Assembly: GCA_035384565.1 (NCBI GenBank)
Contig: DAOOIT010000011.1
Coordinates: 51,282-115,281, forward strand
Direction of reading: 5' to 3'
DNA from: Planctomycetota bacterium
Lineage (GTDB): Bacteria; Planctomycetota; PUPC01; DSUN01
Length of the DNA: 64,000 nt
Every line of letters starts with the position of its first letter. The first letter of the stretch is position 1. The notes under the pieces are model-generated. The model searched no databases, was not told the DNA's origin, and saw only the letters and a program-made list of their open reading frames with translations. Below, one piece after another: positions 775 through 18,093 of the stretch. The position numbers and the translations under genes were made by a program.

Positions 775-807
775 GCAGACGCCATTGGCCCCAGGAGGGC
801 GAGACGA

Positions 808-1485
808 ATGGAAGCGCACAGCCGAGTCTTGCAGACGTACCTGGGCATCGCGCCGCGCACGAGCGAGGAGGCAGCGCTGCGGCTGCTGGTGGACCTCGGC
901 CGCCAATACGCCGACGCCGAAGAGGGCTCGCTGCTCGTGTTGGACCCCAGGACCAATGAGCTGGTCTTCGCCATGACGTCGGGCGACCGCCAGTCCGAGA
1001 AAACCCTCCTCGGCCAGCGGGTCCCCATGGGCCGCGGCCTGGTGGGGCTCGCGGTCGCCACGCGCGAGGTGCAAGCCGGGGCACCCACTTTCCGCGACCT
1101 CCGCCAGCGCAAACACCGGGGGGCCGCCGGGAGCCAGCCCACCGCCGTCCTGGCCGCGCCCATGCTCGTGCGCGAGGAGGTCATCGGCGTCCTCACCGCG
1201 GCAACCTTCCGCCCCGGCCGCCATTTCACACAGGCCCACGCGGCGTTCTACGGCAAGATCGCCGCGGTGGCGGGCCTCGTGGTGGACCAGCAGCAGCGCC
1301 TCGCCGCCGTCGAGCATCTCGACAAGGGCGGGCGGCTGCCCGCCGCCCGCACGCGCGAGCAGCGGCTGCAGGCCGAGATCGTCGCCCGCGTCGTTCGCCT
1401 CACCGCCGGGCGGCCCGAGCGCCTGGCCCGCGTGGCGGCGCTCCTGGCCGCCGTCGAGGCCCTCGGCCGGGGGCCGCAGCCATGA
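808..1485 (+). CDS. GAF domain protein (cassette 1)
   Basis: GGAGGG lies upstream of ATG 808. GAF-core pattern: GSLLVLDPRTNELVFAMTSG...GRGLVGLAVATREV...AVLAAPMLVREEVIGVLTAA. The stop overlaps the next start (ATGA at 1482-1485). Confidence 0.7.
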   Translation: MEAHSRVLQTYLGIAPRTSEEAALRLLVDLGRQYADAEEGSLLVLDPRTNELVFAMTSGDRQSEKTLLGQRVPMGRGLVGLAVATREVQAGAPTFRDLRQRKHRGAAGSQPTAVLAAPMLVREEVIGVLTAATFRPGRHFTQAHAAFYGKIAAVAGLVVDQQQRLAAVEHLDKGGRLPAARTREQRLQAEIVARVVRLTAGRPERLARVAALLAAVEALGRGPQP

Positions 1486-2273
1486 GCCGCATCCAGCGCG
1501 CCCTCCAAGACTCCTTCCGGCGACTTCGCCGTGCCCGCCTTCAGCCGGTTCAAGTCGCGGTCGTGGACAGCGGCGTTGACGCCACGCACCCCGCCCTGCG
1601 CGGGCGCGTGGCAGCGGCATGGCAGGTCATCCCGGGCGCGGACTCGCCCCGACTGGCCAGGGTCTCCCGCGCGCGGAACAACGACTCCTTCGGCCACGGC
1701 ACGGCGGTGGCGGGGATCATCGCGGCCATCGCGCCCAATGCCCGCCTGCTCGACATCCGCGTGCTGGACGAGCATTGCCAAGGGGGCGGGCAGGCGCTCC
1801 TGGCGGGCTTCGGGCAGGCCATGGCCGCGGGCGCCCGCCTCATCAACCTCAGCCTCGCCTGCGTCGCCGAATACGCCCCCCAGCTCCACGACCTGTGCGA
1901 GCGGGCCTATCGGCGAAACCAGATCGTCATCGCCGCCCGGCGCAACATGCCGCTCGCCGACAACGGCTTCCCCGCGGAATTCTCCTCATGCATCAGCGTG
2001 GACGTGATGGCCTCCCCGTCACCCTACGCCATCGCGTTCCTCGACCCGCCGCCCATCGAGTTCGCGGCGCGTGGCGAGAACGTCCGCGTTCTCGCCGCCG
2101 GCGGTGGCACCACGCATCAGACGGGCACGAGCTTCGCCACGCCGGCGGTCACAGGGCTGTGCGCCCTCCTCGTGGGCGCCTACCCCGACCTGAAGCTCTT
2201 TGAGCTCAAGACCTTGCTCAAGCATTTCGCTCGCCGCCCGGCCTGCGGCAGGGACAGGCATTCGGGTTCTTGA
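1482..2273 (+). CDS. Subtilisin-like serine peptidase (S8 family), short and intracellular-type (cassette 1)
   Basis: Catalytic motifs VAVVDSGVDATHPAL (Asp), HGTAVAGIIAA (His), AARRN (oxyanion Asn) and GTSFATPAVTG (Ser). Only 263 aa, with no signal peptide or prodomain. Confidence 0.85.
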   Translation: MSRIQRALQDSFRRLRRARLQPVQVAVVDSGVDATHPALRGRVAAAWQVIPGADSPRLARVSRARNNDSFGHGTAVAGIIAAIAPNARLLDIRVLDEHCQGGGQALLAGFGQAMAAGARLINLSLACVAEYAPQLHDLCERAYRRNQIVIAARRNMPLADNGFPAEFSSCISVDVMASPSPYAIAFLDPPPIEFAARGENVRVLAAGGGTTHQTGTSFATPAVTGLCALLVGAYPDLKLFELKTLLKHFARRPACGRDRHSGS

Positions 2274-2298
2274 CAGGGCGGATTGCGGCTGGTATACT
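2270..2298 (+). promoter_or_regulatory. Near-consensus sigma70-type promoter upstream of the precursor peptide gene
   Basis: TTGACA (2270-2275), a 17-nt spacer, then TATACT (2293-2298) preceded by TGg (extended -10). It stands out in GC-rich DNA and overlaps the TGA stop of the S8 gene. The implied 5' leader to ATG 2410 is about 105 nt. Confidence 0.5.
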
Positions 2299-2409
2299 TT
2301 GCGGAGCACGCGAGTGGCCGTCCACCCGGCAGGTCATCTGTGCAGAGGCGCTCCTCTTGGGCGGGGGGTGCCGTCCGGAGTCCTCAACCGAGACAGAGGA
2401 GGACGAACG

Positions 2410-2637
2410 ATGGGGAAGTTCGAGGATCCGCGGACGTTCCTGAAGAAGAAGCTGGGACCGGTCGGATTCAAGAAGTTCCAGGAGGGGATGCGCCTCGCCG
2501 CCGAGGGCAAAGGGGAGAAGAAGCCGAAGGCGGACGTCGAGGGACAGTCTGCTTCCTGCTATTCCTCCTGCGCGAGCTACTGCGACAGCAACAGCTTCCT
2601 GTCCTCCGGCGCCTACAGCAGGTTCAGCTTCGACTGA
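2410..2637 (+). CDS. Putative RiPP precursor peptide (75 aa)
   Basis: ATG 2410 is preceded by AGGAGGA. The N-half is Lys/Glu-rich and leader-like (MGKFEDPRTFLKKKLGPVGFKKFQEGMRLAAEGKGEKKPKADVEG). The tail is Cys/Ser/Tyr/Phe-rich (QSASCYSSCASYCDSNSFLSSGAYSRFSFD). The gene ends 9 nt before the rSAM gene. The longer track ORF (2200-2637) overlaps the S8 3' end and the promoter. Confidence 0.6.
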   Translation: MGKFEDPRTFLKKKLGPVGFKKFQEGMRLAAEGKGEKKPKADVEGQSASCYSSCASYCDSNSFLSSGAYSRFSFD

Positions 2638-2646
2638 TCGACGGCA

Positions 2647-4137
2647 ATGGACTTCGCGCCTGTGGCCGCTTCGCCTGATAACGTGGCGACGGGTGAGTCC
2701 GGCTCGAGCCGGCCGCTGTACAAAGTCTTCTCTACGGACTCCGGCCACTACCTTTACGATACGGCCACGAATCAGATCCTCACCGTGCCTGAGGACTTTG
2801 CGCGCCACCTCGCCGAGGGAGCCTTCTCGCAGGGCGAGCTCGACGAGATGGCCGCGGACCCCTGGGACGGCGTCCTCGTCCCCACCTCCGGCCTCCCTCT
2901 GACGCCGAGGCTGGACCGCGCCACCGTCGAGAGCGCGATCCAGGGCGAGTGCAAGCAGCTCATCCTGGAAGCGACCCGCGACTGCAATCTGCGCTGCAAG
3001 TACTGCCTCTACTCGGGCCGCCAGCCCGGCCGCCGCGGCACCTACGAGCAGCACATGGCCCCCGACACGGCGCGCAAGGCCGTGGACTATCTGGCGGCCC
3101 ACTCATCCCGCTGCCCCGAGGTCATTGTCGGCTTCTACGGCGGCGAGCCGCTCCTCAACCCCTCTCTCATGCGCGCCACCGCCGAATACGCCCGCCGAAC
3201 CATCACAGACAAGAAGCTCACCCTCACCCTCACCACGAACGGCACGCTGCTCAACCGCGAGACGATGGACTTTCTCGCCGCCAACGAGTTCTTCGTCTAC
3301 GTCAGCATGGACGGCCCGCGCGAGGCGAACGACCGGAACCGCGTCTTCGCCGGCTCGGGGGAAGGCACATCCGACCTCGTGGTGGCGCGGCTGCGCGAGT
3401 TCCAGCGGCTCTACCCCGACTACTGCCGCCGCTCCGTCGGCTTCTCGATGGTCATTGCGCCCGGGGCGGATCTCGCGCGCATGGCCGAATGGGCCGGCGA
3501 ATGGGACCTCGCCCTTGCCACCGTGACCCGCGCCTCGGACGACACGGGAGAACTCGAGGAAGCCTTTCGAGCGCAGCCCGTGACCGGCTACGAACAGCTC
3601 AAGGCCCAGTACATCGAGGCGGCTCGCACCGGCACGTTGCCGCAGCGGCGCGGGCGCATCGGCTTCGCCCTCCACACCGCCCTGTTCTCCATCGGGCTCT
3701 CCACCCTGCGCAAGCGGGCCGTGCCCACATCGCCTCACGACCGCGCTATCCGCCGAGGCATCTGCATCCCCAGCAAACAGCGGCTCTTCGTGGACTGCAA
3801 CGGCGACCTCTTCCCGTGCGAGAAGACGGACGGCTTCCGCCACCTCCACCTCGGCCACGTGGACACTGGGGTGGACGCCCGGAGGGCCTATGACATCATT
3901 GTCGGGTTCCACGAGTTCCTCGCCGAGGAGTGCGCCTCGTGCTGGCTCTGGCGGCTGTGTCCCGTCTGCTTCGTGGGGGCGACCGTGGGGAATGCCTACG
4001 CGCGCGACAAGGCGCGGCGGGTCTGCGAGATGCATCGCCGCGAGATGGCCGACACGCTGAAGACCTACTGCACCATCCTCGAGCACGATCCGGGCGCGCT
4101 CGATTGCTTCCTTGACTCGCAGGCGGATTTGGTGTAG
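2647..4137 (+). CDS. Radical SAM / SPASM-domain peptide maturase
   Basis: CX3CX2C motif at C113/C117/C120 (DCNLRCKYCLYSG), FYGGEPLLN, and a C-terminal SPASM-type Cys cluster (CIPSKQRLFVDCNGDLFPCEK ... CASCWLWRLCPVCF). Confidence 0.9.
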   Translation: MDFAPVAASPDNVATGESGSSRPLYKVFSTDSGHYLYDTATNQILTVPEDFARHLAEGAFSQGELDEMAADPWDGVLVPTSGLPLTPRLDRATVESAIQGECKQLILEATRDCNLRCKYCLYSGRQPGRRGTYEQHMAPDTARKAVDYLAAHSSRCPEVIVGFYGGEPLLNPSLMRATAEYARRTITDKKLTLTLTTNGTLLNRETMDFLAANEFFVYVSMDGPREANDRNRVFAGSGEGTSDLVVARLREFQRLYPDYCRRSVGFSMVIAPGADLARMAEWAGEWDLALATVTRASDDTGELEEAFRAQPVTGYEQLKAQYIEAARTGTLPQRRGRIGFALHTALFSIGLSTLRKRAVPTSPHDRAIRRGICIPSKQRLFVDCNGDLFPCEKTDGFRHLHLGHVDTGVDARRAYDIIVGFHEFLAEECASCWLWRLCPVCFVGATVGNAYARDKARRVCEMHRREMADTLKTYCTILEHDPGALDCFLDSQADLV

Positions 4138-4149
4138 AAACCCCGTGTC

Positions 4150-4704
4150 GTGCGTCGGTGGCTTCTCCCTGGACGCTATGGGGGTTTCCGAATGGCCTCG
4201 CCTCCTGAAGCCGGCGCCCGCCTCGGGGCTGCGCAACCGGCGCTTGACCGCGCCGCCTGCCAGCGCGGCCGGCTCGGCCGGCTGTTGCGCCGCCTCCTCG
4301 CGGAGGCCGTCGCGTCGTGCCGGGCCACCGAAGGTACCCTCTGGGTCCCCTCCCCCACTGGCGCGGCACTCGAGGGAGCGCTCAACCACGGCCAAACGCC
4401 CGACATTCTGGAGGCCGCCTCCGTGCCCGTGGCCGACAGCGTAATCGGCCTCGTCTTCTGCACGGGCGCCGCGGCCTGCATCGGCCCGGACGACCCTCAC
4501 AACCCGAGTGTGGACGAGCAAACCGGCCTCCCCACCCGCGCGATGGCCGCAGCCCCCGTTCGCATCGGGTCCGATACGGTGGCCGTGCTCTCGGTGATCA
4601 ACCCGGCGGGCGGCGGCGTCTTCTCGCGCGCCGACCTCGAGGCCCTCGAGTGGAAGGCGTATCTCGCGGCCCTGGTGATCGAGGACGCACACGATGAGCC
4701 CTGA
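4150..4704 (+). CDS. GAF domain protein (cassette 2)
   Basis: GAF-like core: EGTLWVPSPTGAALEGALNHGQ...ADSVIGLVFCTGAAACIG...MAAAPVRIGSDTVAVLSVIN. GTG 4150 is the first start; ATG 4192 (MASPPEAG) is an alternative. The 3' end overlaps the next gene by 11 nt. Confidence 0.6.
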   Translation: MRRWLLPGRYGGFRMASPPEAGARLGAAQPALDRAACQRGRLGRLLRRLLAEAVASCRATEGTLWVPSPTGAALEGALNHGQTPDILEAASVPVADSVIGLVFCTGAAACIGPDDPHNPSVDEQTGLPTRAMAAAPVRIGSDTVAVLSVINPAGGGVFSRADLEALEWKAYLAALVIEDAHDEP

Positions 4705-5464
4705 GCCCGTGGCCATAGACGCGGCCCGCCTCGCAGCCGCCACCGGCAGCGGCGTGCGGGTGCTGCTGGTAGACTCGGGCGTGGAGGTGAGCCACCCGGC
4801 GTTGCAGGGCGTGAGAATCCCCTGCTGGGGCGTGCGGCTGGCGGAGGGCGCGACGCCGTGCGTCGTCGAGGACAGCGGCGGCGACGCGGCCGGCCATGGC
4901 ACCGCCGTGGCCTGGCTGCTGCACCAGCACGCGCCCGAGGCCGAGCTTCACAGCCTGCGGGCCATCGGACCCAGCCTCCACGGCTCGTCGGCCCTCCTCC
5001 TCGCCGGCCTGCGGTGGGGCGTCCGGCAGGGCTACGACATCCTCGTCTGCAGCTTCGGCACAGCCTGCGAGGATTTTCTGCGCGACTACAAGCGGTTGGT
5101 GGACCAGGCCTTCTGCCGCAACGTGTGGCTTGTCGCCGCGTCGGGCAACGTGGACTTCTGCGCGGCGGAGTACCCCGCGCACTTCCCCACCGTGCTTTCG
5201 ACCGATTTCGCAGCGCTGCACGGTCTGGCCCTACAGCGGCGGCGGGGAACCCTCGTGGAGTTCGTGGCGAACGGGGAGGGCCTCCATGTGCCGTGGCGGG
5301 GAGGAGGCTACCGCACGGTATCGGGGTGCAGCTTCGCCGCGCCCCATCTCGCCGCCCTTGCGGCCAGGGTGCGCCAGGCCCATCCCGCCTGGAACGCCTG
5401 CCAGGCCAAAGCCGCCCTCTACGCGCTCGCGGAAGAGGCCCCTCGCGAGGCCCTGCGCACCTGA
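4694..5464 (+). CDS. Subtilisin-like serine peptidase (S8 family), short and intracellular-type (cassette 2)
   Basis: VLLVDSGVEVSHPAL (Asp), GHGTAVAWLL (His), VAASGN (oxyanion Asn) and SGCSFAAPHLAAL (Ser). 256 aa, no signal peptide or prodomain. Clear paralogue of 1482-2273. Confidence 0.8.
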   Translation: MSPEPVAIDAARLAAATGSGVRVLLVDSGVEVSHPALQGVRIPCWGVRLAEGATPCVVEDSGGDAAGHGTAVAWLLHQHAPEAELHSLRAIGPSLHGSSALLLAGLRWGVRQGYDILVCSFGTACEDFLRDYKRLVDQAFCRNVWLVAASGNVDFCAAEYPAHFPTVLSTDFAALHGLALQRRRGTLVEFVANGEGLHVPWRGGGYRTVSGCSFAAPHLAALAARVRQAHPAWNACQAKAALYALAEEAPREALRT

Positions 5465-5548
5465 GAGTGCCCAAGCGTGTCTCTGCGCACCCTGCGCGTG
5501 TCGGCCGCGTCGAGTGGGCGAGCGGATGGGCGGATGGCAATCACCCGC

Positions 5549-7780
5549 TCACCCATCCCTTTCGGTGGCGGCCCCCCGCCGCCTCAGCAAGTCCTTCAGC
5601 CACGCCGGGCAACCCGGGCCGCTGAGGAACTCCCGAGTATAGGCGTATCCGGCCTCCGCGATCTCGTCCATGGCCTCGAACTCGAGGATTCCATACCGTT
5701 CGACGGGCGGGCGCAGGCAGAGGTCGGCGTCGCGTTGGACCTCCTCGGCCTTGTGGTCGCTGCCGATGACCAGCGTGCGGATGAGGACGTCGAAGATGCC
5801 GGGGATGCGCCGGGCTCCCCTCTTCCGCCGCCGCAGGCGGTCCCAGAGCAGGCGCCAGGGCGAGGGGAACTCCTCGCCTTCGACGGCCATCTCCACGGGA
5901 GGGCTGACGCTGACCGCGATGACCCGTTCGCAACCGGCGCGGCGGAGCAGATCGCCGGGGAGGTTGTTCAACACCCCACCATCCACCAGGAGGTGGCCAT
6001 TCTGAATGGCCGGCGGAAAGACGCCGGGCAGGGATGCGCTGGCCCGCACGGCCTTCCAGACGCGGCCGCGCCGGTGGACCTCCAGGTCGGCCGTCGTCAG
6101 GTTGCACGAGACGCAGAGGAAGGGGAGCCAGAGGTCCTCGATGCGGGCCTCGCCGTACACCGTGGGCAGCAGGCGGTCGAGCCTCCGGCCGCGGAGGAGC
6201 GAGAGGATCGGCAGCGTGTACTCCTTGTGCGGCCTGCCCTGGATGAACACGTGGCGGCCCCGGGAGAGCTCGGTCGCGTAGTCCATCTCCATCGCGAGTG
6301 CCGCACCAACGACGGCTCCCATGCTGGCTCCCGCCACGCGGTCAATGGGCGCGCCGGCCTCGAGGAGGGCGCGGATGACGCCCAGGTGCGCCAGCCCGCG
6401 CGCCCCGCCGCCCCCGAGCACCAGGCCCACCGCCCGCCCGGCAAGGCACCGAGCCAGCCGGGCCGCGTCGTCCTCTCGACCCTCGCGGATATGGTAGTGC
6501 TCGGCCGGCGCCAGGGCTTCCAGCCAGGCGCCGATTCCCGAAGGAAGGCTAGCATCGTTCGGGTGCACGAGGACGAGGTTAAGCGGCTTGGCGGTTTCGG
6601 GTCTCGCGTTGGGGGTTCCGAGGCTCAGTCCGCAATCCGCAATCCGCAATCCACAATCCCCGAGAGCGGGGCCTGCGACCAAGATGACCTGATCGGCCTC
6701 CCGGATGCAGCGACGAGTCCAGGCTGAACCCGCCGCGTCGGCTTGGAGGATGAGGAACCTATGCCGGGTCTCCTGCTCGTCGAGCCAGGCGGTGAGCCAG
6801 CCGCCGCGCGGGGTGCCGGGTTCGACTTCGGCGGCGCCGCGCAGGCCGGTGAGGCGGTCCAGCGTGTCGCGCGACAGGTGGAGCGTGGACCCGAGGCGTG
6901 CGAGCGCCGCGGCGAGCCGGGCCGCCACCTCGTCCAGCGGCACGTCCGGGCCGGCAGGAACGAGTGCGAACGACATCGCCCTCTGGCGGGCCGGCTCGGA
7001 GCGCTCGCGGGCGCGGAGGCGTTGGGCCAGCACCCGCGCCAGCCCAGCGACGATCTCGGGGTGCCGGGCGCGGACCGCCTCGAATGCCTCGGGCGGGAGG
7101 CGGGCCAGCACGCTGTCGCGCAAGGCGCGCACCTCGCCCGTGCGCGGCTCGCCCGTGAGGAGCGCCATCTCGCCCACGCTCTCGCCGGGGGTGACCTCGG
7201 AATGAGGAGTGGAGAGCCCCTTCCGCCCCCCACACTGCGCACTACGCACTTGCAGGCGTCCGCTCAACAGAATGTAGAGGCTGCGGTCCGCCTCCCCTTC
7301 CCGCACAAGCACCTCGCCGCCGGCCAGCGACACCCAGTCCACGCGCCCCTCGATCTCCTCGAGTGCGGCGCGCCCGAGCGGCCCGAGCAAACGGGCCAAC
7401 GCCACGGCTAGCTGGCTGCGGCGAAGGCGTTCGCGGACCAGCTCCGCCAGGCGTTCCGCGATCGCGGGCGCGGTCTCGAGGAGGGCTTCGACCTCGGCGG
7501 CGCCCAGGCGCAGGAGCCGGCTGTTCTCCACGGCCGTGACGGATGCCGTGCGGGTGCCGGCGGTGAGCGCGCCCAGCTCTCCGACGATTTCTCCCGCCCG
7601 GAGGTCGCCGAGCGTCAGGCCCTCCTGAGTCACGCGGAGGCGCCCCTCCACGATGAGGAACAGGGCGTCGGCCGGGTCGCCCTGGCGGAAGAGCGGCTCC
7701 CCCGCGGCCAGCCGCGCTTCGGCGAGTCGGTTGCCGAATCGCTCTCGAAGCAGCGGCTCGGGGTCTTCGTGCCCGGTCAT
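5549..7780 (-). CDS. Protein with two cNMP-binding domains and a patatin-like phospholipase domain (NTE-like architecture)
   Basis: ATG 7780 overlaps the upstream stop (ATGA 7777-7780). Two CAP_ED domains: LFRQGDPADALFLIVEGRLRV...GEIVGELGALTAGTRTASV and LVREGEADRSLYILLSGRLQV...GESVGEMALLTGEPRTGEV. Patatin motifs: LVLGGGGARGLAHLGV, GASMGA (GXSXG) and LLVDGGVLNNLP (DGG). Confidence 0.9.
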   Translation of the reverse strand: MTGHEDPEPLLRERFGNRLAEARLAAGEPLFRQGDPADALFLIVEGRLRVTQEGLTLGDLRAGEIVGELGALTAGTRTASVTAVENSRLLRLGAAEVEALLETAPAIAERLAELVRERLRRSQLAVALARLLGPLGRAALEEIEGRVDWVSLAGGEVLVREGEADRSLYILLSGRLQVRSAQCGGRKGLSTPHSEVTPGESVGEMALLTGEPRTGEVRALRDSVLARLPPEAFEAVRARHPEIVAGLARVLAQRLRARERSEPARQRAMSFALVPAGPDVPLDEVAARLAAALARLGSTLHLSRDTLDRLTGLRGAAEVEPGTPRGGWLTAWLDEQETRHRFLILQADAAGSAWTRRCIREADQVILVAGPALGDCGLRIADCGLSLGTPNARPETAKPLNLVLVHPNDASLPSGIGAWLEALAPAEHYHIREGREDDAARLARCLAGRAVGLVLGGGGARGLAHLGVIRALLEAGAPIDRVAGASMGAVVGAALAMEMDYATELSRGRHVFIQGRPHKEYTLPILSLLRGRRLDRLLPTVYGEARIEDLWLPFLCVSCNLTTADLEVHRRGRVWKAVRASASLPGVFPPAIQNGHLLVDGGVLNNLPGDLLRRAGCERVIAVSVSPPVEMAVEGEEFPSPWRLLWDRLRRRKRGARRIPGIFDVLIRTLVIGSDHKAEEVQRDADLCLRPPVERYGILEFEAMDEIAEAGYAYTREFLSGPGCPAWLKDLLRRRGAATERDG
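6629..6659. repeat. Heptanucleotide tandem repeat inside the patatin-gene linker
   Basis: TCCGCAA x3 plus TCCACAA plus TCC on the + strand. In the gene it is translated as GDCGLRIADCGLS, between the cNMP and patatin domains. Confidence 0.8.
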
Positions 7781-10700
7781 CGGTGGAGGGCCTCCTGCCA
7801 ACGGCGGTACTGATCGACGCGCCAGGCCTCGAACCGCTCGCGCCAGGGGACAGCCGCGTCGCCCGGATAGGCCCCCGACCACCACGGCCTCGCGCGCCAG
7901 AGACGCGCCGTGCCGTCCTCGCCTCCGGTGACAATCGTCAGCCCGTCGCCGCTGAAGAGGACGTGAGTGACCGGTTTCGCATGCCCCTCCAGCACGGCCA
8001 GTTCGCGACCCGAGGCCGTGTCCCACAACCGCACCGCCGCGCCGTCCGCGGTCGCCACACGGGAGCCATCCGGGCTCAGGGCAGCTCCCGTCGGCGTGCC
8101 GTTCCTGCCCCGGAACGTGTGGAGCGGCGAGACAGAGGCAACGTCCCACAGCCGTGCCTCGAGGCTGCCCGAGCTGGTGACGGTGGTGATGAGGACACGC
8201 TGGGCGTCGGGGGTGAACTGGGCGTGCCAGGGGGAGTCGCCTTTCTCGCCCCGCAGCACGGCGATGGTCGCGCCCGAGCGGGTGTCCCACACGCGGGCCG
8301 TGCCGTCGGCCGCGGTCGTGGCCAGGCGGGCGCCGTCGGCGCTGAATGTGGCGTCGTGCAGCCCACGCTCGTGGCCCGCCATCGTGGCCTGGAGCTTGCC
8401 CGAACGGGCGTCCCACACCTTTGCCGTGTGATCGCTCGACGCCGAGGCGACCTGTGTGCCGTCGGGGCTGAACACCGCGTCCCAAACGATGTCCGTGTGG
8501 CCCACGAGGTCGGCCAGCATCTTGCCGGTGGCGGCGTCCCACACTTTGGCCGTCCGGTCGCTGGAGGCGGTGACGACCCGCGTCCGATCGGGGCTGAAGC
8601 GGGCACGGCGCACGGTCTGGCCGTGCCGTATCTCCACGCTCTGCGAACACGCCTCGGCAAGTTCGCTGACAAACACAGTGCTCGTGCCACTGAGGATGGC
8701 AACGCTATGGCCATCGGAAACGAGATCAATGCCACCGATAGAACCCTGGCCATGGCGGCACGGCAGGCTGGCAGCGCGAGCCGTATCCCACGCGCTGAAC
8801 CTCCCACCGGCAACCACGACTAGCCTCGCACCATCACGGCTGACCGCCACGTCCTGTAGCGCCTCGCCGCCCGACTGCACGAAGACCTGCCGGTCAAGGT
8901 GGAAGACGAGCGGAGCGGGCCGCTCGCGCGATGACGGCTCCGCGATCTCCCAGAGCTTGGTCGCGCCGTCGGCCGACGACGTGGCGAAACACGGTGCGCC
9001 GGGCGCAAACGCTGCCGCGTGCACCGGGCCGCTGTGGCCCGAAACCGTGAACAAGAGAGCGCCGCTGGCGGCTTCCATGCACGCAACTCCCCCTGCGACG
9101 GCGGCAAGAATCTGCTTGCCTTCGGGGCCGACCGCGAGGGGAAGGCCGAGGAACGTGCGCAAGTGCTGTCCTCTCTCGGCACTCCAGATACTGCCCGTGG
9201 CAACCTCGCCGGCTTGCGCAGTGAGGAACTGCATGCCCTCCCCCAGGAAGGCAACGAGGGTTGGGGTGCCCGGGCAGGACACTTCGCAGACAGGCTTGCC
9301 CGTCGCCACGTCCCACACCCGAGCTGTGCGGTCAGGCGCTGTGGGCACGGCCTCGGCGCCCCGCGGCGAAGGGCGAGAGGCGAGCCAGGCATCCCAGGGC
9401 CGCGCGGTACGCTGGCCGGGGGCGGTGGCGAGGCGGCGACCCTGGCTGTCGAATGCCACACACACGACTGGCGCCGCATGGGCGGCCTGCGACCAGAGGA
9501 GCGTGCCCGCCTGCGTGTCCCAGACCTCCACCGTGCCATCCTCGGCGCCGGTGGCGACGCGGGAGCCGTCGGGACTGAAGACCGCTGTGGTCAGGCCCAC
9601 CTTGTCGAGCCAACGGATGGCGTCCTCGACCGTGGCGAAGCGGCGCGCCGCCGCCTCGCGCCGCGCGCGGCCGCAGAGCGTGCGGAGCGCGGCGCCCGAG
9701 CGGGTGTCCCAGAGCTTCGCCGTGCCATCGAAGCCGGCGGTGAGCACCAGGCCGCCCTTCGCGGCGCAGTGCGCGGAGACCACGTTGCGCGTGAGCTCCA
9801 GAGCGGCCAGGAGCGTGCCCATCGCCTCGCGGGGCGCAGGGGCGAACTCGCTCATCGGACCGCCCTCGGGCCGCAGGGCGAACGGCTTCTCCTTCAGCGA
9901 CTGCATCATGTCCCATGTCGTGCGCTTGGCCCAGGCGTCGGCGAGGGCGGCGGAGAGTTCTGGCGCCCCGGGCGGGCCGATGGCGAGAGCCGGGCAGTGG
10001 CCGCTCAGAACGGCGAGCGGCTTCCCCGTGCCGGCCTCCCACAGGCGCGCCGTGCCATCGTAGGAGGAGGTGAGGATGCGCTGTCCGTCGGGGCTGAACT
10101 CGGCGCCGTTCAGCCAGGCCGCGTGGCCGTCCAGCACGGCCGCGGTGCGGCCGCTGCGGGTGTGCCACACATAAGCCTTCCCGTCGTCGCAAGCGGCCAC
10201 GATGTGAGATCCGTCGGGGCTGAAGGCGACGCTCTGGAGGGGTTGGCCGCTGCCGCGCAGCGTGCCGAGGTCGGTGGAGCAACGGGCGAGGAGGTGGCCC
10301 CATTCCCAGTTTCGCAGGGCCTCGGGCGCGCCCCAGAGGGCGTCGCGGGCCTGATCATAGCGCTGCTGCTCGATCTGCCGCGTGGCGAGGAGGACGTTCG
10401 AGAAGTAGAGTTCGGCCTCTGTGCGGCGGCGGGCGGCGACCGCGTCGTCGCGCTCGCGCTGGGCAACGGCCGCGTGGTGGCGGGCGATGCGGCGCTGGAC
10501 GAACGCGTAGGCGCCCAGGACAGCCAGGACGATGGCCGCGACGGCGGCGACGCTGGAGATGGCCGCGAGGCGCTGGATGCGGCGCCGCTGGGCCTCGCGG
10601 TCCCGCTGAAGCTGGCGCTCGCGGAGCCGCTCGTCGTGACTGCGGAGCGCGCGGGACAGCTCGGCGGCCCGCGGCCAGCGGGCGGCGGGGTCGGTCGCGA

Positions 10701-12273
10701 TGCAGCGGGCAATGTCCTCGCGAAGCACCTCGCTGCCCACTTGGCGCTCCCAGTCGCCCAGCGTGCGCTCGAGGTCGCCGCACACGATCTGGTAGAGCGT
10801 CACACCAAGGCTGTAGAGGTCGCTCTGGGGGGACGGGGACGCGCCGCGGCGGAGTTCAGGGGCCAGGTAGTCCCACGTGCCGGCCACGCCTTCGATGCGG
10901 GTGCTGGTGAGGCTCTTCAGGACATCGTCGTCGGCCGCCGCGCCGAGGCCGAAATCGGTCAGTTTGGCCACGAGCACGCCATCCTCGCGCCGGGCGAGGA
11001 GGAGGTTCGACGGCTTGATGTCGCGGTGGAAGATGCCGGCCGCGTGGACGGTGTCGAGGGCGTCGGCGATTTGAGCGACGATCTCGAGGCGTTCGGCCAG
11101 GGGCGGGTTCCCGGCCAGCCAGCCGGCGAGCGACGGCCCTTCGACGTACTCCATTTCGAGGTAGTAGGGGGGCCGGTCGCCCTCGGTGATGTCGTAGACC
11201 TCGACGAGGTTCGGATGGTGGTAACGGTGGAGGCGCTTGAGCAGGCGGGCCTCGCGCTTGAGGGCCTGGAGGCGTTCGCGCTTGAAGCAGAACTTGAAGA
11301 CCTGGCGCGACTTGTCGGCGGGGTTCCACGCCTTCCACACTTCGCCGAAGGCGCCGCGGTACCGCACTGCGGAGTGGAGAGTGCGGAGTGCGGATTGGGA
11401 AGGAGTTCCTGCCTGGGCTGCCTCTTCATTCCGCACTCCGGACTCCCCACTCCGCACTACCTCCTCGCGCCCGAGGCGTTCCTCGAGCACCCAGCTCGTG
11501 CCAGGGACGGTGACCCCGACAGCGGGCCGCCAGCCCAGCTCCTCGTCGGCCTGCTCGGCTGGCCAGCCTTTGGCCGTGGCCGCAGGGGCCGCGAGGGGCG
11601 CGTGCGTTCGCTCGCCGATTTCGCAGACCTCGTAGCGATCCTCGACGCCCTTGAAGCGATAGGGGCCGTGGTTGCACCAGGCCACGGGGTCGAGGCCCGC
11701 CAGGTCGTCGCGGCAGAGGATGGCCCGAGCGTCGTCGAAGACTGCCCGGGTGCAGAGAATCTGCCCGCCACGGGCCAGGTCCGCGATGCGGGCGGCGGTC
11801 GAGATCTGGAGGCCGTAGATGTCCAACCGCTTCGGGCCGTCGTCGTGGCGCTCCACCACGACCTGTCCCTGGTGAATCCCCACGCGCACCTGCGGCAGGT
11901 CCGGCTCGTCCCCGCGAGCGGCTCGCATGGCCGCCTGCATGTGCAGGGCGAACTTCACCGCCTCCGAGGGGGTCGCGAACACGACCAGGAAGGAGTCGCC
12001 GGCCGTCTCCACCTCCTGGCCATCCACACCGCTGAGCGCCCGGCGGAAGATCTCCCTGTGGATGCGCACCAGGGCCGCGGCACGGACGTTGCCCAGCGTG
12101 CTCTGCTGCCGCGTGGAGCCCTCCAGGTCGCTCAGCAGAATCGTGAGCACCTGCGTGGCGTGGGCGATGCGGAAGCGCTCCATCTGCTCGCGCGAGGCGG
12201 CCGTCAGCCCCACCGAGTCCGGAGCGCCGGCCATCTGTTGTGCATCAGGGGAATCCGCCGAGGCCATGCTCAC
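7777..12273 (-). CDS. Multidomain signalling protein: class III nucleotidyl cyclase, Ser/Thr protein kinase, TM helix, WD40 repeats
   Basis: Cyclase motifs: LLSDLEGST, VETAGDSFLVVF, RVGIHQGQVV, ISTAARI. Hanks kinase motifs: RGAFGEVWKA, HRDIKPSNLLL, DFGL, APE. TM helix: LAAISSVAAVAAIVLAVLGAYAFV. More than 850 aa of WD40-type repeats follow (SPDG..., DGTA.LWD/VWD). The first start is GTG 12273; ATG 12267 is an alternative. Confidence 0.9.
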   Translation of the reverse strand: MSMASADSPDAQQMAGAPDSVGLTAASREQMERFRIAHATQVLTILLSDLEGSTRQQSTLGNVRAAALVRIHREIFRRALSGVDGQEVETAGDSFLVVFATPSEAVKFALHMQAAMRAARGDEPDLPQVRVGIHQGQVVVERHDDGPKRLDIYGLQISTAARIADLARGGQILCTRAVFDDARAILCRDDLAGLDPVAWCNHGPYRFKGVEDRYEVCEIGERTHAPLAAPAATAKGWPAEQADEELGWRPAVGVTVPGTSWVLEERLGREEVVRSGESGVRNEEAAQAGTPSQSALRTLHSAVRYRGAFGEVWKAWNPADKSRQVFKFCFKRERLQALKREARLLKRLHRYHHPNLVEVYDITEGDRPPYYLEMEYVEGPSLAGWLAGNPPLAERLEIVAQIADALDTVHAAGIFHRDIKPSNLLLARREDGVLVAKLTDFGLGAAADDDVLKSLTSTRIEGVAGTWDYLAPELRRGASPSPQSDLYSLGVTLYQIVCGDLERTLGDWERQVGSEVLREDIARCIATDPAARWPRAAELSRALRSHDERLRERQLQRDREAQRRRIQRLAAISSVAAVAAIVLAVLGAYAFVQRRIARHHAAVAQRERDDAVAARRRTEAELYFSNVLLATRQIEQQRYDQARDALWGAPEALRNWEWGHLLARCSTDLGTLRGSGQPLQSVAFSPDGSHIVAACDDGKAYVWHTRSGRTAAVLDGHAAWLNGAEFSPDGQRILTSSYDGTARLWEAGTGKPLAVLSGHCPALAIGPPGAPELSAALADAWAKRTTWDMMQSLKEKPFALRPEGGPMSEFAPAPREAMGTLLAALELTRNVVSAHCAAKGGLVLTAGFDGTAKLWDTRSGAALRTLCGRARREAAARRFATVEDAIRWLDKVGLTTAVFSPDGSRVATGAEDGTVEVWDTQAGTLLWSQAAHAAPVVCVAFDSQGRRLATAPGQRTARPWDAWLASRPSPRGAEAVPTAPDRTARVWDVATGKPVCEVSCPGTPTLVAFLGEGMQFLTAQAGEVATGSIWSAERGQHLRTFLGLPLAVGPEGKQILAAVAGGVACMEAASGALLFTVSGHSGPVHAAAFAPGAPCFATSSADGATKLWEIAEPSSRERPAPLVFHLDRQVFVQSGGEALQDVAVSRDGARLVVVAGGRFSAWDTARAASLPCRHGQGSIGGIDLVSDGHSVAILSGTSTVFVSELAEACSQSVEIRHGQTVRRARFSPDRTRVVTASSDRTAKVWDAATGKMLADLVGHTDIVWDAVFSPDGTQVASASSDHTAKVWDARSGKLQATMAGHERGLHDATFSADGARLATTAADGTARVWDTRSGATIAVLRGEKGDSPWHAQFTPDAQRVLITTVTSSGSLEARLWDVASVSPLHTFRGRNGTPTGAALSPDGSRVATADGAAVRLWDTASGRELAVLEGHAKPVTHVLFSGDGLTIVTGGEDGTARLWRARPWWSGAYPGDAAVPWRERFEAWRVDQYRRWQEALHR
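11356..11466. repeat. 111-nt palindromic (MITE/REP-like) element inserted in frame in the kinase Gly-rich loop
   Basis: Inverted arms are built from GCGGAGTG/GCGGATTG units: GTAGTGCGGAGTGGGGAGTCCGGAGTGCGGAATG ... CAATCCGCACTCCGCACTCTCCACTCCGCAGTGCGGTAC on the coding strand. It encodes EEVVRSGESGVRNEEAAQAGTPSQSALRTLHSAVRYR (aa 270-306). Confidence 0.7.
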
Positions 12274-12671
12274 GATGCGGGCGAGGCCCGCCCTCCGAAG
12301 TGCGCCTGCTCCCCCTCTCGCGCTCCTTCTTACCTCTTTTTCGATGGCGCGTCAACCCCTCCTCCCTTCTTGGAGTGCGCCACCCTCGTGTAGCAGCGGC
12401 GAGGGCATAGGGTCAGGAAAACCCGTCCGGCGAGGCGGAAACACGGGTTGTCCCGGCGGCGGGTGGCCGCCCTGCTCAGCGGGCGGAGAGGAATGGTGAA
12501 CATCGGCTGACGACTTCGAGGGGCCGTTCCGTTCCCGCCCTGGTGTACGGGGACGTAATCAAGCTCGTCGAGCGCGGGAAGGCCGTGGCCGTGGAGCTGG
12601 TGGTGGAAGCGTTCGGCGTGGGGTGTGGGCCGGAGTTGTAGGTGGCTGCGGGAGCTCCGAAGGAGCGAAAT

Positions 12672-12812
12672 GGGATAGCCCAGGGCAACGCCCTGGGAAC
12701 CAGACCGCCCCGTGGCAGCCCTGAAAGGGCGGAATAGAGAGCTTCTATCTCGCCCCTTCAGGGCTGGACCCGTGAATCCCACTGAACCCAGGGCGTTGCC
12801 CTGGGCTATCCC
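12672..12812. repeat. Nested palindromic intergenic element (about 141 nt)
   Basis: Outer arms: GGGATAGCCCAGGGCAACGCCCTGGG / CCCAGGGCGTTGCCCTGGGCTATCCC. Inner arms: CAGCCCTGAAAGGGCGG...CGCCCCTTCAGGGCTG. It lies between the divergent genes 7777-12273 and 12957-14705. Confidence 0.75.
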
Positions 12813-12905
12813 ATGCGAGCCCTTCAGGCTCCAGAGAGAACCACCCTGCCTGCAATTCCGGCCCACACCCTTCGGCGTGGCGCTCCTGGCATTCGCCGCC
12901 GCTTT

Positions 12906-12914
12906 TGGTATACT
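12906..12914 (+). promoter_or_regulatory. Possible extended -10 promoter element (TGgTATACT)
   Basis: TGGTATACT lies 43 nt upstream of ATG 12957. There is no convincing -35. The same TGGTATACT string occurs in the promoter at 2290-2298. Confidence 0.3.
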
Positions 12915-12956
12915 GTCGCCCTGACAGACACCCATCCCACGGCTCGGAGAGCCCCG

Positions 12957-14705
12957 ATGATTCTCGATACGACCACCATTCATGACCTCGCCGCCCTGCT
13001 CAAGCCTCACATGCATCTGCCGGCCTGGCCCGGCCTTTCGGACCCCGCCGCCAAGGCCCGCGCGAGGCAGTGGGCGAAGAAGCTGGGCCTCTGGGAACGC
13101 CTGGGCCGCGGGAGCGACCCTCAGAAGCCAATCCCCGTCGTCCGGCGGTCGCACTATCGCGACTACCGCCGCACCGGCAACCGCACCCTCGGCGAGACCG
13201 CCTTGCGCGGCAGGGCTCAAACCACCGAGCAGGCCGCGCTCGCCCTCTGGCTCGGCCATCCCGCCGGGGACCTCGATTACGTGCAGGACCTGCTCTGGGC
13301 CTGGTGCGAGACGTCGAGCTGGATCTGGCCGGCCCACGAGCACTGCACGATTGACCTCGGCTCGTCGCACATCGCCCGCCTGCTGGCCGAGATCCTCTGG
13401 ATGCTCGACGACCGGCTGGAGGACGAGGTCAAGCAGCGCGTGGGGGCCGAAATCCAGCGCCGCGCGCTCGATGCCTTGCACGACTGGAGGCATCCCGACG
13501 GCTGGTGGACGGTGACGATGAACTGGAACCACGTGTGCAACGCGAACCTGATCGCGGCGGCGCTCTACCGCATCCGCGACGTGGGGCAGCTCGCGGCGTT
13601 CCTCCACCCGCTCGTCCAGCGGCTCGACTACGCGATTCAGGGCTTCCCGCCCGATGGCGGTTGCCTCGAGGGGCCGAGCTACTGGAACTACGGCTTCGGG
13701 CATTTCCTCGACGCGGCCGTCGCGCTGCATTATCGCACCGGGGGCCGCCTGAACCTCGTGCAGGGCGAGCACATCGAGCGCATCTGCCGCTACCCGCTGG
13801 CCGCGCACATCGAGGGGCCGCTGCGCTCGACCTTCGCCGACAGCTCGAACGGCTACATCAGCGCCGAGAGCGCCCTCGAGATCAACCGCTTCCTGCACCT
13901 GCCCGAGTTGTACGAGGTCGCGGCCCGCGACAAGCAGGGCCGTCTCGCCGTGGCGGGCTGGCGCGGCCTGCTGCTGTACCACGGCGAGAGGGTCACGGGC
14001 AAGGCCGACACCCGCGACTACCTGCTGCCCGACCTCGGCATGGCGAAGCTGCGCGCGGGGGGCACCACGCTGCTCACCCTCGCCGGGCGCAACGACGTGC
14101 CTCACAACCACAACGACATCGGCAGCTTCATCCTCCACAGGCACGGCAAGTGCCTCCTCACGGACCCCGGCGCGCCGAAGTACACGGCGAAGACCTTCGG
14201 ACCCAAGCGCTACGAGATCCTCTTCTGCCGTTCACGGGGCCATTCGGTGCCGCTCATCAACGGCAGAGAACAGCCGACTGGCGGCCACTATCGCGGCACT
14301 CTGGCGGTCGAGGGCCTCAATGCGGCCGGCCCCAAGAGCGCCACCATCGACATGACGCACGCCTACGACGACAGGACGCTGTCGCGCCTCCTCCGCCGCT
14401 TCGACCTGGCGCCGGATGGCCATGTGGAGTTGCGCGACCGCTTCGCCTTCACGCGCGCGCCGCGGCGGCTCGAAGAGGCGTTCATCACCTTCGAGCCCGT
14501 GCGCATCGCGCGAGGCGGGCGTGCCGCCGTGGTGGGCAGGGGCCGCCGCAGCGTGACCATCACCACACGGACGCCCGGGCGCTTCGCCGCCGAGCGCCTC
14601 GTCGAGGAGTCCGAGGAGGGGCGGACCGGCGCTGTGGTTACCCGCCTCACGTTCGCGCCCGCGCGACTCGAAAGGGAGATGGCCTTGGTATTCAGGATAG
14701 CGTGA
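12957..14705 (+). CDS. Heparinase II/III-like (polysaccharide lyase-like) protein
   Basis: ATG 12957 has GGAGAG upstream. EGPSYWNYGFGHF and HNHNDIGSFILHRHG resemble heparinase II/III family signatures. The family assignment is by eye only. Confidence 0.6.
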   Translation: MILDTTTIHDLAALLKPHMHLPAWPGLSDPAAKARARQWAKKLGLWERLGRGSDPQKPIPVVRRSHYRDYRRTGNRTLGETALRGRAQTTEQAALALWLGHPAGDLDYVQDLLWAWCETSSWIWPAHEHCTIDLGSSHIARLLAEILWMLDDRLEDEVKQRVGAEIQRRALDALHDWRHPDGWWTVTMNWNHVCNANLIAAALYRIRDVGQLAAFLHPLVQRLDYAIQGFPPDGGCLEGPSYWNYGFGHFLDAAVALHYRTGGRLNLVQGEHIERICRYPLAAHIEGPLRSTFADSSNGYISAESALEINRFLHLPELYEVAARDKQGRLAVAGWRGLLLYHGERVTGKADTRDYLLPDLGMAKLRAGGTTLLTLAGRNDVPHNHNDIGSFILHRHGKCLLTDPGAPKYTAKTFGPKRYEILFCRSRGHSVPLINGREQPTGGHYRGTLAVEGLNAAGPKSATIDMTHAYDDRTLSRLLRRFDLAPDGHVELRDRFAFTRAPRRLEEAFITFEPVRIARGGRAAVVGRGRRSVTITTRTPGRFAAERLVEESEEGRTGAVVTRLTFAPARLEREMALVFRIA

Positions 14706-16696: not shown

Positions 16697-16782
16697 GGTA
16701 GGGCGGGCATACCTGCACGCGGAATCCCTCGCCGCCGAGCATAGCCGCTTCATCCCCCGCGTGCAACTATGCAGGCCCTACC
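16697..16782. repeat. REPIN doublet (two inverted REP units), diverged copy
   Basis: GGTAGGGCGGGCATACCTGCACGCG ... CGCGTGCAACTATGCAGGCCCTACC. It contains the TAG stop (16778-16780) of the URO-D-like gene. Confidence 0.8.
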
Positions 16783-17923
16783 AGGAGTACCGGCCGTGGT
16801 CCTTGCACGCGGCGTACATGGCCGCGACGTTGTCGGGCGGGGTGAAGGGGGCCAGGTTATTGCCCTCGCGCAGGATGAACTTGCCGCCCTCCATGACGCC
16901 CGACTGGAGGATGCGCTTGGCCTCGGCGCGCACGGCGCGCGGCGTGCCGGTTCGCAGCAGCTCGACGTGCGGCCCTCCCTGGATCGTGATGCCGGGGCCC
17001 AGCTCGCGGCGGAGCGCCCCGTGGTCTACGGGGAAGCCAGTGTCGAAGCTCGTCACCTTCAGTTCGTCCCGAACCGTCTTGAAGTGCCGCGTGGCGTCGC
17101 CGCACAGGTGAATCGAGTTGGGGCCTTCCGGGCCGAACGCCGCGATGAGCCGCTTGTGATAGGGCAGCACGAGCTCGCGGTAGGTGTCTACCGACAGGAG
17201 CGCGATGCTGTCGTCGGCGAAGCCCCACGCCTTCGATTCGACGGGCTGGCCGAGGCGCTCGCGGTAGGCTCGGATGCGGCGAATCGTCCCCTCCACCAGC
17301 AGCGACATCAGGTCGTGGTAGAAGGCGGGGTCGGCGTACATGTCCAGGCAGATACCGGTCGGACCGCGGAGCGCGCAGGCGATGGTGAACGGCCCGTCGG
17401 TGCCGCAGCCGGTGGGCGAGCCTGCCTTGACGGGCCGGCCGCAGAACTCGTAGCCGCTCTCCGCCCGCCGCTTGAAATGCTCAAAATACTCCCAGTTCCG
17501 CCCCATCCACCCGCCGAAGGGGTCGGGCACGCCGCGGGCGATGAAGGCCGCCTTGCCCTCGTCCGTGATGCAGGGCGGGGAGTCGGGCACGTTGCCCTCG
17601 ATGAACCGCAGGGGCGCGCCCCACCAGAGCACCTCGTAGCTGTTCTGGAAATCCACGCTCACCGTCCAGGCCTCGGGCAGGCCCATCTCGGCGTCCTGGA
17701 CGAGATGGTGGCGGACCCAGTGCTGATGGCGGAGCTGGGTCTCGAACATCACATCGGGGTCGTTGAAGTATTCCTCGTAGGTGACCCCCTTTGTGTTGAT
17801 GGCAGGATTGAGGATGGTGAAGCGCGACGAGATGCCGAGCACCATCGGCACCCGCGAGGGCTTGCCCTCGCGGAAGCGTTGCCACACCTCTTCCACCTCG
17901 GCGTTGTGCTGCGCGAAATCCAT
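16778..17923 (-). CDS. Uroporphyrinogen decarboxylase (URO-D)/MtaA-like family protein, paralogue 1
   Basis: 381-aa URO-D-like sequence (family recalled by eye). ATG 17923 lies 6 nt after AGGAG. The track ORF extension up to 18097 is translated REP sequence (VGRAYLHA..., RVQVCTPY). Confidence 0.65.
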   Translation of the reverse strand: MDFAQHNAEVEEVWQRFREGKPSRVPMVLGISSRFTILNPAINTKGVTYEEYFNDPDVMFETQLRHQHWVRHHLVQDAEMGLPEAWTVSVDFQNSYEVLWWGAPLRFIEGNVPDSPPCITDEGKAAFIARGVPDPFGGWMGRNWEYFEHFKRRAESGYEFCGRPVKAGSPTGCGTDGPFTIACALRGPTGICLDMYADPAFYHDLMSLLVEGTIRRIRAYRERLGQPVESKAWGFADDSIALLSVDTYRELVLPYHKRLIAAFGPEGPNSIHLCGDATRHFKTVRDELKVTSFDTGFPVDHGALRRELGPGITIQGGPHVELLRTGTPRAVRAEAKRILQSGVMEGGKFILREGNNLAPFTPPDNVAAMYAACKDHGRYSW

Positions 17924-17935
17924 CGCCATCTCCTT

Positions 17936-18080
17936 GTAAGGCGTGCATACCTGCACGCGGAATCTTCCCCTCGGCGCGAGCGTCAACCCACTCCGGTAGG
18001 GCGTGCATACATGCACGCGGGATCTTCGGTTGCCGGCGCTCGCCCCCGTCCGTTCCGCGTGCAAGTATGCACGCCCTACC
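17936..18080. repeat. REP cluster: one solo REP plus one REPIN doublet
   Basis: Solo unit GTAAGGCGTGCATACCTGCACGCG (17936-17959). Doublet: GGTAGGGCGTGCATACATGCACGCG (17995-18019) ... CGCGTGCAAGTATGCACGCCCTACC (18056-18080). Confidence 0.85.
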
Positions 18081-18093
18081 ATGCGGCGCGCGC

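Follow-up and report, generated by a model that had tools for sequence, protein, structure and literature searches.

Two overlapping minus-strand genes of a Planctomycetota bacterium (contig DAOOIT010000011.1) raise the question of whether a receptor bearing a nucleotidyl cyclase domain and a phospholipase bearing nucleotide-binding domains constitute one signalling system and, if so, whether this system serves phage defence or lipid physiology. The genes lie in the window analysed here, a stretch of 64,000 nucleotides with a G+C content of about 70%. Gene A encodes a 1498-aa receptor-type protein and gene B encodes a 743-aa patatin lipase with two cyclic nucleotide monophosphate (cNMP)-binding domains, related to human NTE/PNPLA6, a nerve enzyme. 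The preferred reading, to which a probability of about 0.6 is attached, is that A and B are translationally coupled and together form a second-messenger module in a Planctomycetota-like lineage, with lipid remodelling or turnover, and not phage defence, as its output. The module comprises the following features:

5549–7780, minus strand: gene B, NTE/PNPLA6-family protein (translation, Pfam, hydropathy scan, AlphaFold)
7777–12273, minus strand: gene A, receptor-type protein with a cyclase homology domain, a Ser/Thr kinase, a transmembrane helix and WD40 propellers (open reading frame, Pfam, orthologues in loci L001, L004, L006 and L094)
7777–7780, minus strand: ATGA stop/start overlap of A and B (sequence; a 4-bp overlap also in L001, L004, L006 and L094)

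Gene A was delimited from its open reading frame (ORF) and translation; the G+C content of its third codon positions (GC3) is 0.87, a coding-type value in the codon-position G+C filter. Gene B is absent from the list produced by that filter and its mechanical ORF runs upstream to 8650; the length of 743 aa is counted from the ATG at 7780. At the junction (CACCGATGACCGGG; around 7780, CACCG ATGA CCGGG), the TGA stop codon of A (7779–7777) shares bases with the ATG start codon of B (7780–7778), giving an overlap of 4 bp. Both the ATGA coupling and the domain composition of the two proteins had been described in an earlier, sequence-only reading of this DNA; translation, Pfam and a hydropathy scan showed that description to be accurate throughout. 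The operon is isolated, being divergent from a heparinase II/III-like gene (12813–14705, plus strand) and convergent with a plus-strand cluster at 79–5464.

The pairing of A and B is a real module, beyond chance, because gene order and the 4-bp overlap are kept in four further lineages with unrelated flanks. The B proteins of these lineages are 79% (L001), 65% (L004), 63% (L006) and 64% (L094) identical to B of the window, and their A orthologues have 1470–1543 aa and end 4 bp inside the start of B. The pair is flanked by an ABC transporter, a VTT protein and arginyl-tRNA synthetase in L004, by an aldo-keto reductase, a methyltransferase, Lon and HSP20 in L006, and by catalase, DeoC and a radical SAM gene in L094. 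The partial contig L096, with a B protein of 55% identity, has an upstream gene 10 bp from B whose product aligns with A residues 1025–1492 at 41%. A metagenome scan found the same A–B lineages again. No cyclase is present in the visible part of L009, the locus of the next B relative (51%). The sequence-only reading had named synteny in relatives as a check, and the pair is indeed kept in the four lineages.

Protein B is, by its sequence, a member of a large, uniform and already annotated bacterial NTE/PNPLA6-like family. It consists of four predicted domains:

7472–7714, minus strand: cNMP-binding domain 1, B residues 23–103, cassette G67-E68...R77-T78-A79 (Pfam, translation)
7013–7360, minus strand: cNMP-binding domain 2, B residues ~141–256, cassette G203-E204-M-A206...R213-T214 (Pfam; PADLOC stretch 140–268)
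6476–6967, minus strand: NTE P-loop-like domain, B residues 272–435 (Pfam PF24179, NTE_Ploop)
5957–6424, minus strand: patatin phospholipase domain, B residues 453–608 (Pfam Patatin)

Pfam scores are 136.6 bits for the two cNMP_binding domains, 102.9 bits for Patatin and 62.4 bits for NTE_Ploop (cutoff 27). The catalytic motifs are a GGGARG oxyanion loop (residues 456–461), GASMG with the nucleophile S486, and D600-G-G; G457, G458, S486, G488, D600 and G601 are invariant in an alignment of 20 diverse homologues, as are G67, E68, G203, E204, A206 and R213 of the cNMP-binding domains. Both phosphate-binding cassettes retain Gly-Glu and Arg-Thr. An assignment of ligand specificity from the Arg-Thr pair was dropped, Arg followed by Ser or Thr being common to the cassettes of both cAMP and cGMP binders. 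The hydropathy scan found no transmembrane or hydrophobic segment in B. The AlphaFold model has a predicted local distance difference test (pLDDT) score of 81.4, and its tandem cyclic nucleotide-binding fold resembles PKA-R and PKG. The structure nearest to the patatin domain is PlpD (target-normalised TM-score 0.84) and the best NCBIfam match of this domain is RssA; the PDB contains no full-length NTE-type structure.

Homologues of B are numerous, with 671 database matches below E 1e-20. Among the matches listed, the typical length is about 745 aa and the Pfam architecture of B, including NTE_Ploop, is present in 120 of 120. A scan of one genome per species gave at least 576 relatives, and the family occurs in Proteobacteria, Acidobacteriota, Gemmatimonadota, Chloroflexota, Nitrospirota, Actinomycetota and other phyla. 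The sources name these proteins ‘NTE family protein/lysophospholipid hydrolase’; the nearest homologues come from metagenomes, and the named ones are from Planctomycetota metagenome-assembled genomes (MAGs). Forms of about 600 aa are common among the fetched loci, and Rv2565 of Mycobacterium tuberculosis is shorter than B, with a single cNMP-binding domain. As in NTE/PNPLA6, the cNMP-binding domains of B precede an NTE P-loop-like domain, and a patatin Ser-Asp esterase completes the protein. Unlike NTE/PNPLA6, B has two cNMP-binding domains instead of three, lacks an N-terminal transmembrane anchor and is encoded by a gene translationally coupled to that of a dedicated cyclase-bearing receptor. 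Family membership suggests a (lyso)phospholipase function.

Protein A combines three kinds of recognisable domain with one membrane-spanning segment:

11533–12183, minus strand: class III cyclase homology domain, A residues 31–247, Pfam core 40–178 (Pfam, PDB alignment, AlphaFold)
10753–11358, minus strand: Hanks-type Ser/Thr kinase, A residues 306–507 (Pfam Pkinase)
10492–10566, minus strand: single predicted transmembrane helix, A residues ~570–594 (Kyte–Doolittle scan)
7894–10356, minus strand: WD40 β-propeller region, A residues ~640–1460 (Pfam WD40)

Pfam Guanylate_cyc (PF00211) matches residues 40–178 with 60.8 bits (cutoff 21.9) and Pkinase matches with 116.4 bits. The kinase has a complete set of catalytic motifs (VFKF, HRDIKPSN, DFG and APE), which is kept in the four orthologues. 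The Kyte–Doolittle peak of 2.52 at residues ~570–594 marks the sole strong hydrophobic segment of the protein, and the WD40 match (252 bits, eight stretches) reaches the C-terminus. Identity among orthologues is 83–93% in the cyclase domain, 80–92% in the kinase and 49–72% in the WD40 region, the cyclase thus being the most and the WD40 region the least conserved part. This gradient corresponds to the usual picture of conserved output modules with a faster-evolving, presumably sensory part. Since the cyclase and kinase domains both need nucleoside triphosphates (NTPs), they must be cytoplasmic, and with one transmembrane helix the WD40 region is probably extracytoplasmic; if the helix spans the membrane and the catalytic domains are inside, this region is presumed to be the sensor. 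The best NCBIfam matches of the kinase and cyclase parts are TIGR03903 (TOMM_kin_cyc) and TIGR04510 (mod_pep_cyc), with 95.5 and 87.7 bits, far under the respective cutoffs of 705 and 400. A shares with these fusions the presence of a Ser/Thr kinase and a class III cyclase on one polypeptide; it differs in having the transmembrane helix and WD40 region and belongs to neither family.

The cyclase domain of A is probably catalytic but non-canonical, judging from its residues. The metal-binding aspartates are D49 (in SDLEGST) and D93 (in AGDSF), both invariant in the orthologues, and the catalytic Arg is that of the motif TAAR. A census of 120 homologues, with ~105–117 aligned per position, showed that both aspartates and the Arg are near-invariant; the D49 and D93 positions hold Asp in 102 and 107 aligned homologues, respectively. 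The specificity Lys position is occupied by Glu89 and the second specificity residue is Asp151, a hybrid pair that fits neither the canonical Lys-Asp/Thr of ATP-using enzymes nor the Glu-Cys/Gly of GTP-using ones. The transition-state Asn position holds Ser, with Gln two residues before, and the paired Arg is kept. The missing Asn need not be disqualifying, because the canonical position is not Asn in Ma1120 either: an alignment of PDB structures to A places Ala there, with Asn two residues before, and Ma1120 is named an adenylyl cyclase by its depositors and was crystallised with ATP and GTP. The substrate and product of the A cyclase cannot be read from the sequence.

The AlphaFold model of this domain has a pLDDT of 93.4. 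Its best PDB matches are the cyclase homology domain (CHD) of Rv1900c, Ma1120 and Cya2 (target-normalised TM-scores 0.73–0.90); the nearest solved relatives are the mycobacterial Ma1120 and Rv1900c, both active cyclases on which the model superposes. A thus shares its fold, two metal-binding Asp and catalytic Arg with these class III enzymes. It differs from them in pairing a guanylyl-type Glu with an adenylyl-type Asp, in having Ser for Asn, and in being fused N-terminally to a Hanks kinase, a transmembrane helix and WD40 repeats. Among about 108 sequences of the subfamily, which has the signature YGLQ[VI][DS]TxAR, the Lys position holds Glu in 51, Ser in 25, Gly in 10 and Lys in 4, and the canonical Asn is present in 6. 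The named members are mostly from Verrucomicrobiota MAGs, with one from Omnitrophica, and many are fused to kinases. A homologue search with the N-terminus of A gave matches of at most 472 aa, many of them fragments, and is unusable for counting full-length orthologues. A separate observation concerns the 5.97-Mb contig L092, where a gene at 9001–9855 encodes a 284-aa cyclase-only protein 72% identical to the cyclase domain of A. PAAR and DUF4123 genes and then ParE/antitoxin pairs lie downstream, and the gene looks like an A-type gene cut off by an inserted effector/toxin island.

The link between cyclases and B-family lipases extends beyond this operon. A class III cyclase hidden Markov model, built from the loci in hand, was searched against six-frame translations of the flanks of 80 distant B-family loci from many phyla (442 kb upstream and 422 kb downstream). 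Eleven cyclase ORFs were found upstream of the B-family gene and none downstream (binomial p = 0.001), and the 11 represent six or more distinct sensor architectures. Nine of the 11 are on the strand of B; four are separated from it by gaps of 6–46 bp and two belong to three-gene same-strand arrangements. Upstream of the lipase gene are a PAS-cyclase in L039, a dCache_3-HAMP cyclase in L054, an FHA-cyclase in L086, a HisKA-REC-cyclase in L026 and proteins with two cyclase domains, AAA_16 and TPR in L032 and L047; L107 provides one further upstream example. A CHASE2-cyclase gene overlaps the start of B by 4 bp in L010, where B is 45% identical. At least eight unrelated sensor-cyclase designs sit in front of B-family genes. 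What they have in common is the cyclase, and this is the strongest evidence for an action of the cyclase product on B. This gene order supports the logic of a cyclase feeding a putative cNMP-gated lipase.

The surroundings of these loci provide some further observations. L010 also encodes another cyclase, in which the canonical Lys/Thr pair is kept, and an oxidoreductase of the Pyr_redox_2 type that bears a cNMP-binding domain (4760–6034 and 10257–11888), and together with the CHASE2-cyclase/B operon they make up a small cNMP-signalling island. Further cNMP-binding proteins are encoded near B-family genes in 11 loci. In the HisKA-REC-cyclase of L026 (3902–5578), Glu and Gly occupy the specificity positions, as in the pair described for the guanylyl cyclase Cya2, and some cyclase partners of the B family may therefore make cGMP. 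Aas-like genes, whose products are fusions of Acyltransferase and AMP-binding domains (lysophospholipid re-acylation, acyl-ACP synthetase), lie directly upstream of B relatives in the Burkholderiales-type loci L016 (5452–7605), L017 (3068–5221) and L034 (5519–7750); they hint at a deacylation/re-acylation cycle. A DUF2652 gene, encoding a predicted class III-like cyclase, adjoins B in L011. DUF2652 as a recurrent partner of B was rejected, a jackhmmer search having found it in L011 only. It has been linked by gene neighbourhood to Rv2564 and Rv2565, both listed as cNMP-binding-domain proteins (2016; PMC4886424). That in silico link also joins a class III-like cyclase to cNMP-domain proteins, including the NTE-like Rv2565; it differs in concerning another cyclase family, in involving no receptor kinase and in being a gene-neighbourhood note only.

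The proposed mechanism is as follows. A would be a single-pass membrane receptor whose WD40 region, of about 850 residues beyond the transmembrane helix, senses a signal. Class III cyclases are obligate dimers, and signal-dependent dimerisation, or rearrangement of a dimer, could turn on the cyclase domain. The cyclase would then make a cyclic nucleotide, and the kinase could give a second output or feedback. The nucleotide would fill both cNMP-binding domains of B and lift the inhibition of the patatin Ser-Asp esterase, so that B is presumably activated and not inhibited by it. B would deacylate (lyso)phospholipids, as enzymes of the NTE/PNPLA6 family do, and the output, controlled by the state of the envelope or by the environment, may be the remodelling or turnover of membrane lipids.

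Several points weigh against this proposal. The cyclase of A lacks the canonical Lys (Glu89) and Asn (Ser), which makes its activity and product uncertain. A-like cyclase-kinase N-termini, truncated or differently built, occur without B in L092 and L093. The flanks that differ from lineage to lineage could reflect mobility, or ordinary loss of synteny at 63–79% identity. No cyclase lies within 8 kb of the lipase gene in 69 of the 80 B-family loci, and a dedicated cyclase is therefore optional in this family and not generally needed. The residues flanking the transmembrane helix of A are positively charged on both sides, so the sole basis of the proposed topology is that the cyclase and kinase require NTPs from the cytoplasm. 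Analogues of cNMPs shifted the localisation of mammalian PNPLA7 and not its activity (PMC5704489).

The alternative that survives best, although it is considered distinctly less probable than the second-messenger module, is that the cyclase domain of A is a pseudo-cyclase acting as a dimerisation or regulatory module. B would then be controlled by phosphorylation, binding or co-expression, and its cNMP-binding domains would answer a cNMP made elsewhere, or no ligand at all. The replaced Lys and Asn, rare as both canonical residues are in the subfamily (4 and 6 of about 108 sequences), are consistent with this, as are the full catalytic motif set of the kinase and the many B-family genes with no adjoining cyclase; the FHA-cyclase of L086 hints at a phospho-signalling input. 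However, near-invariance of the metal-binding Asp and the Arg is the pattern expected of catalysis and not of a scaffold, no other part of A is as well conserved as the cyclase domain, and Ma1120 is active without the canonical Asn. Moreover, eight other sensor-cyclase architectures, which have no kinase, hold the same position relative to B.

The reading favoured by the sequence-only analysis, abortive infection of the Pycsar or CBASS type (the latter the cyclic oligonucleotide-based antiphage signalling system), is improbable. According to it, A would sense infection and make a nucleotide, possibly a pyrimidine cNMP, and B would destroy the membrane. The anatomy and the cyclase/cNMP-effector logic on which this view was built do stand: as in Pycsar, a class III-type cyclase is encoded beside an effector with a cNMP-binding domain, and as in CBASS with CapV, a patatin phospholipase may be under the control of a nucleotide second messenger, patatins being known suicide effectors. 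The best PADLOC match of B is PycTIR (114.5 bits, via the cNMP-binding domains), the PycC models match the A cyclase domain weakly (28.6 and 13.6 bits), the product is not fixed by the specificity residues, which are non-canonical, and the flanking genes differ in every lineage.

The link to CBASS and Pycsar itself is not supported. No CD-NTase was matched by Pfam or PADLOC in A, B or their neighbours. The NCBIfam CBASS_lipase model gave 27.8 bits on B against a cutoff of 200, and the PADLOC phospholipase effector gave 34.7 bits, a domain-level match only. No PycC structure was among the top 50 fold matches of the A cyclase model, which are canonical adenylyl and guanylyl cyclases, and no CapV structure was among the top 50 of B, whose patatin domain is nearest to PlpD and RssA. 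PADLOC was applied to both proteins, to the isolated cyclase domain and to 19 genes flanking the pair in five lineages (the window, L001, L004, L006 and L094). All matches were at the level of domains (kinase, cNMP-binding domain, generic radical SAM, subtilase) and none among the neighbours was defence-specific, so that the association with defence islands, which the sequence-only reading had proposed to check, was not found; the identifiable neighbours are housekeeping genes. Homologues of B were absent from 50,697 phage records and present in 18 of 72,556 plasmid records, mostly of non-mobilizable megaplasmids. The assignment to CBASS or Pycsar was rejected on these grounds: no CD-NTase, weak PycC and CapV-type matches, no defence genes nearby and no phage homologues.

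The differences from both systems are also structural. B is an NTE-type patatin with neither a TIR domain nor a transmembrane segment, whereas the Pycsar effector is a TIR or transmembrane protein, and the A cyclase is embedded in a surface-receptor kinase of 1498 aa. Compared with CBASS, the pair lacks a CD-NTase and the lipase scores far below the family cutoff; to our knowledge, CapV has no separate cNMP-binding domain. A WD40 sensor that is probably extracytoplasmic would be odd as a detector of intracellular phage. The B family is uniform (~745 aa), spans many phyla and is sometimes found beside Aas-like lipid-recycling genes. Two points favour lipid physiology, namely the NTE family membership of B and the Aas-type lysophospholipid-recycling genes beside its relatives. 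The alternative that the sequence-only reading had kept in reserve, an NTE-like lipid pathway with a receptor kinase/cyclase, is the better fit in view of the NTE_Ploop domain and the naming of the family.

A bolder variant starts from the non-canonical residues of the A cyclase subfamily (Glu or Ser for Lys, Gln...Asp/Ser for Asn). The subfamily would make neither cAMP nor cGMP but a different nucleotide, which would specifically gate B as a membrane-lysis switch triggered by a surface receptor. This variant is considered highly improbable; if true, such a switch would represent a new class akin to Pycsar in which a patatin is the effector, serving defence or programmed cell death.

Chance adjacency of unrelated genes is extremely improbable: kinase-WD40 proteins and cyclases are numerous in Planctomycete-like genomes and some adjacency is expected, but order and overlap are kept down to 63% identity of B in five lineages with unrelated flanks, identities of 63–79% exclude assembly duplicates of one genome, and cyclases stand upstream 11 times and downstream never across phyla.

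The remaining features of the locus lie upstream of A and in the convergent cluster:

12274–12812, no strand assigned: divergent intergenic region upstream of A, presumed promoter and leader (gene map)
12653–12697, minus strand: Rfam Acido-Lenti-1 (RF01687) match (44.1 bits, gathering score 37)
79–774, plus strand: ORF with an ABC-exporter C-terminal remnant and a cNMP-binding domain
808–1485, plus strand: GAF protein
1482–2273, plus strand: S8 peptidase
2200–2637, plus strand: ORF with a Cys-rich C-terminus, containing a candidate Cys-rich precursor (SCYSSCASYCDSNS)
2647–4137, plus strand: CcpM-like radical SAM/SPASM maturase (296 bits, under the cutoff of 500)
4150–4704, plus strand: ORF, GAF-like by eye
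4694–5464, plus strand: second S8 peptidase

The Acido-Lenti-1 motif is about 380 nt upstream of the A start and on the same strand as A. In L001, L004, L006 and L094, no such motif was detected ahead of A; for this reason, it was rejected as a conserved leader and its membership in the A–B system is doubtful. The plus-strand cluster at 79–5464 accompanies A–B in the closest lineage, L001, and is absent from L004, L006 and L094. It was accordingly rejected as part of the system and is treated as a separate neighbour resembling a gene cluster for a ribosomally synthesised and post-translationally modified peptide (RiPP). Its cNMP-binding and GAF proteins might answer the same nucleotide as B. 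A promoter and terminator scan of the convergent gap between B and the S8 gene found none. An 810-aa S8 peptidase protein is also encoded in L047 (4185–6617), between the STAND-type double cyclase and the B-family gene, which it overlaps by 4 bp; the likeness to the window, where an S8 peptidase adjoins B, may be a coincidence. Elsewhere in the window, an ORF at 18743–22756 (minus strand) encodes 1337 aa with a coding-type GC3 of 0.91; it has no Pfam or PADLOC match and is flanked by two URO-D-like genes (16778–18097 and 22760–23779).

The B family and every domain of A are already known, and a cyclase combined with a cNMP-binding-domain effector is ordinary cNMP signalling grammar. The new elements are the cyclase-kinase-transmembrane-WD40 receptor, its translational coupling to an NTE-type lipase and the statistical link between cyclases and lipases across phyla. 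No bacterial cyclase/cNMP-patatin system and no A–B operon was found described in the literature searched, which contained only the DUF2652/Rv2565 neighbourhood note (PMC4886424). The sequence-only reading had not recognised the architecture; that of B is common and annotated, and the operon is indeed the part with no description found. The present analysis also removes a tempting, unsupported assignment of the pair to anti-phage systems. The subfamily to which the A cyclase belongs is uncharacterised. It is common among bacteria of the Planctomycetota and Verrucomicrobiota types, frequently in fusion with kinases, and the residues that determine its substrate fit neither the adenylyl nor the guanylyl type.

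Of the human disease mutations in NTE/PNPLA6, about one in ten lies in the cNMP-binding domains, the function of which is described as still unknown (PMC12710771). Bacterial members of the B family are hard-wired to cyclases of their own, here and in several other phyla, and this is the genomic signature expected if the cNMP-binding domains of NTE-type enzymes are true cyclic-nucleotide sensors. With soluble proteins and no more than two genes in the system, the question could be tested directly, which makes A–B a tractable model for the role of cNMP-binding domains in NTE/PNPLA6-type enzymes.

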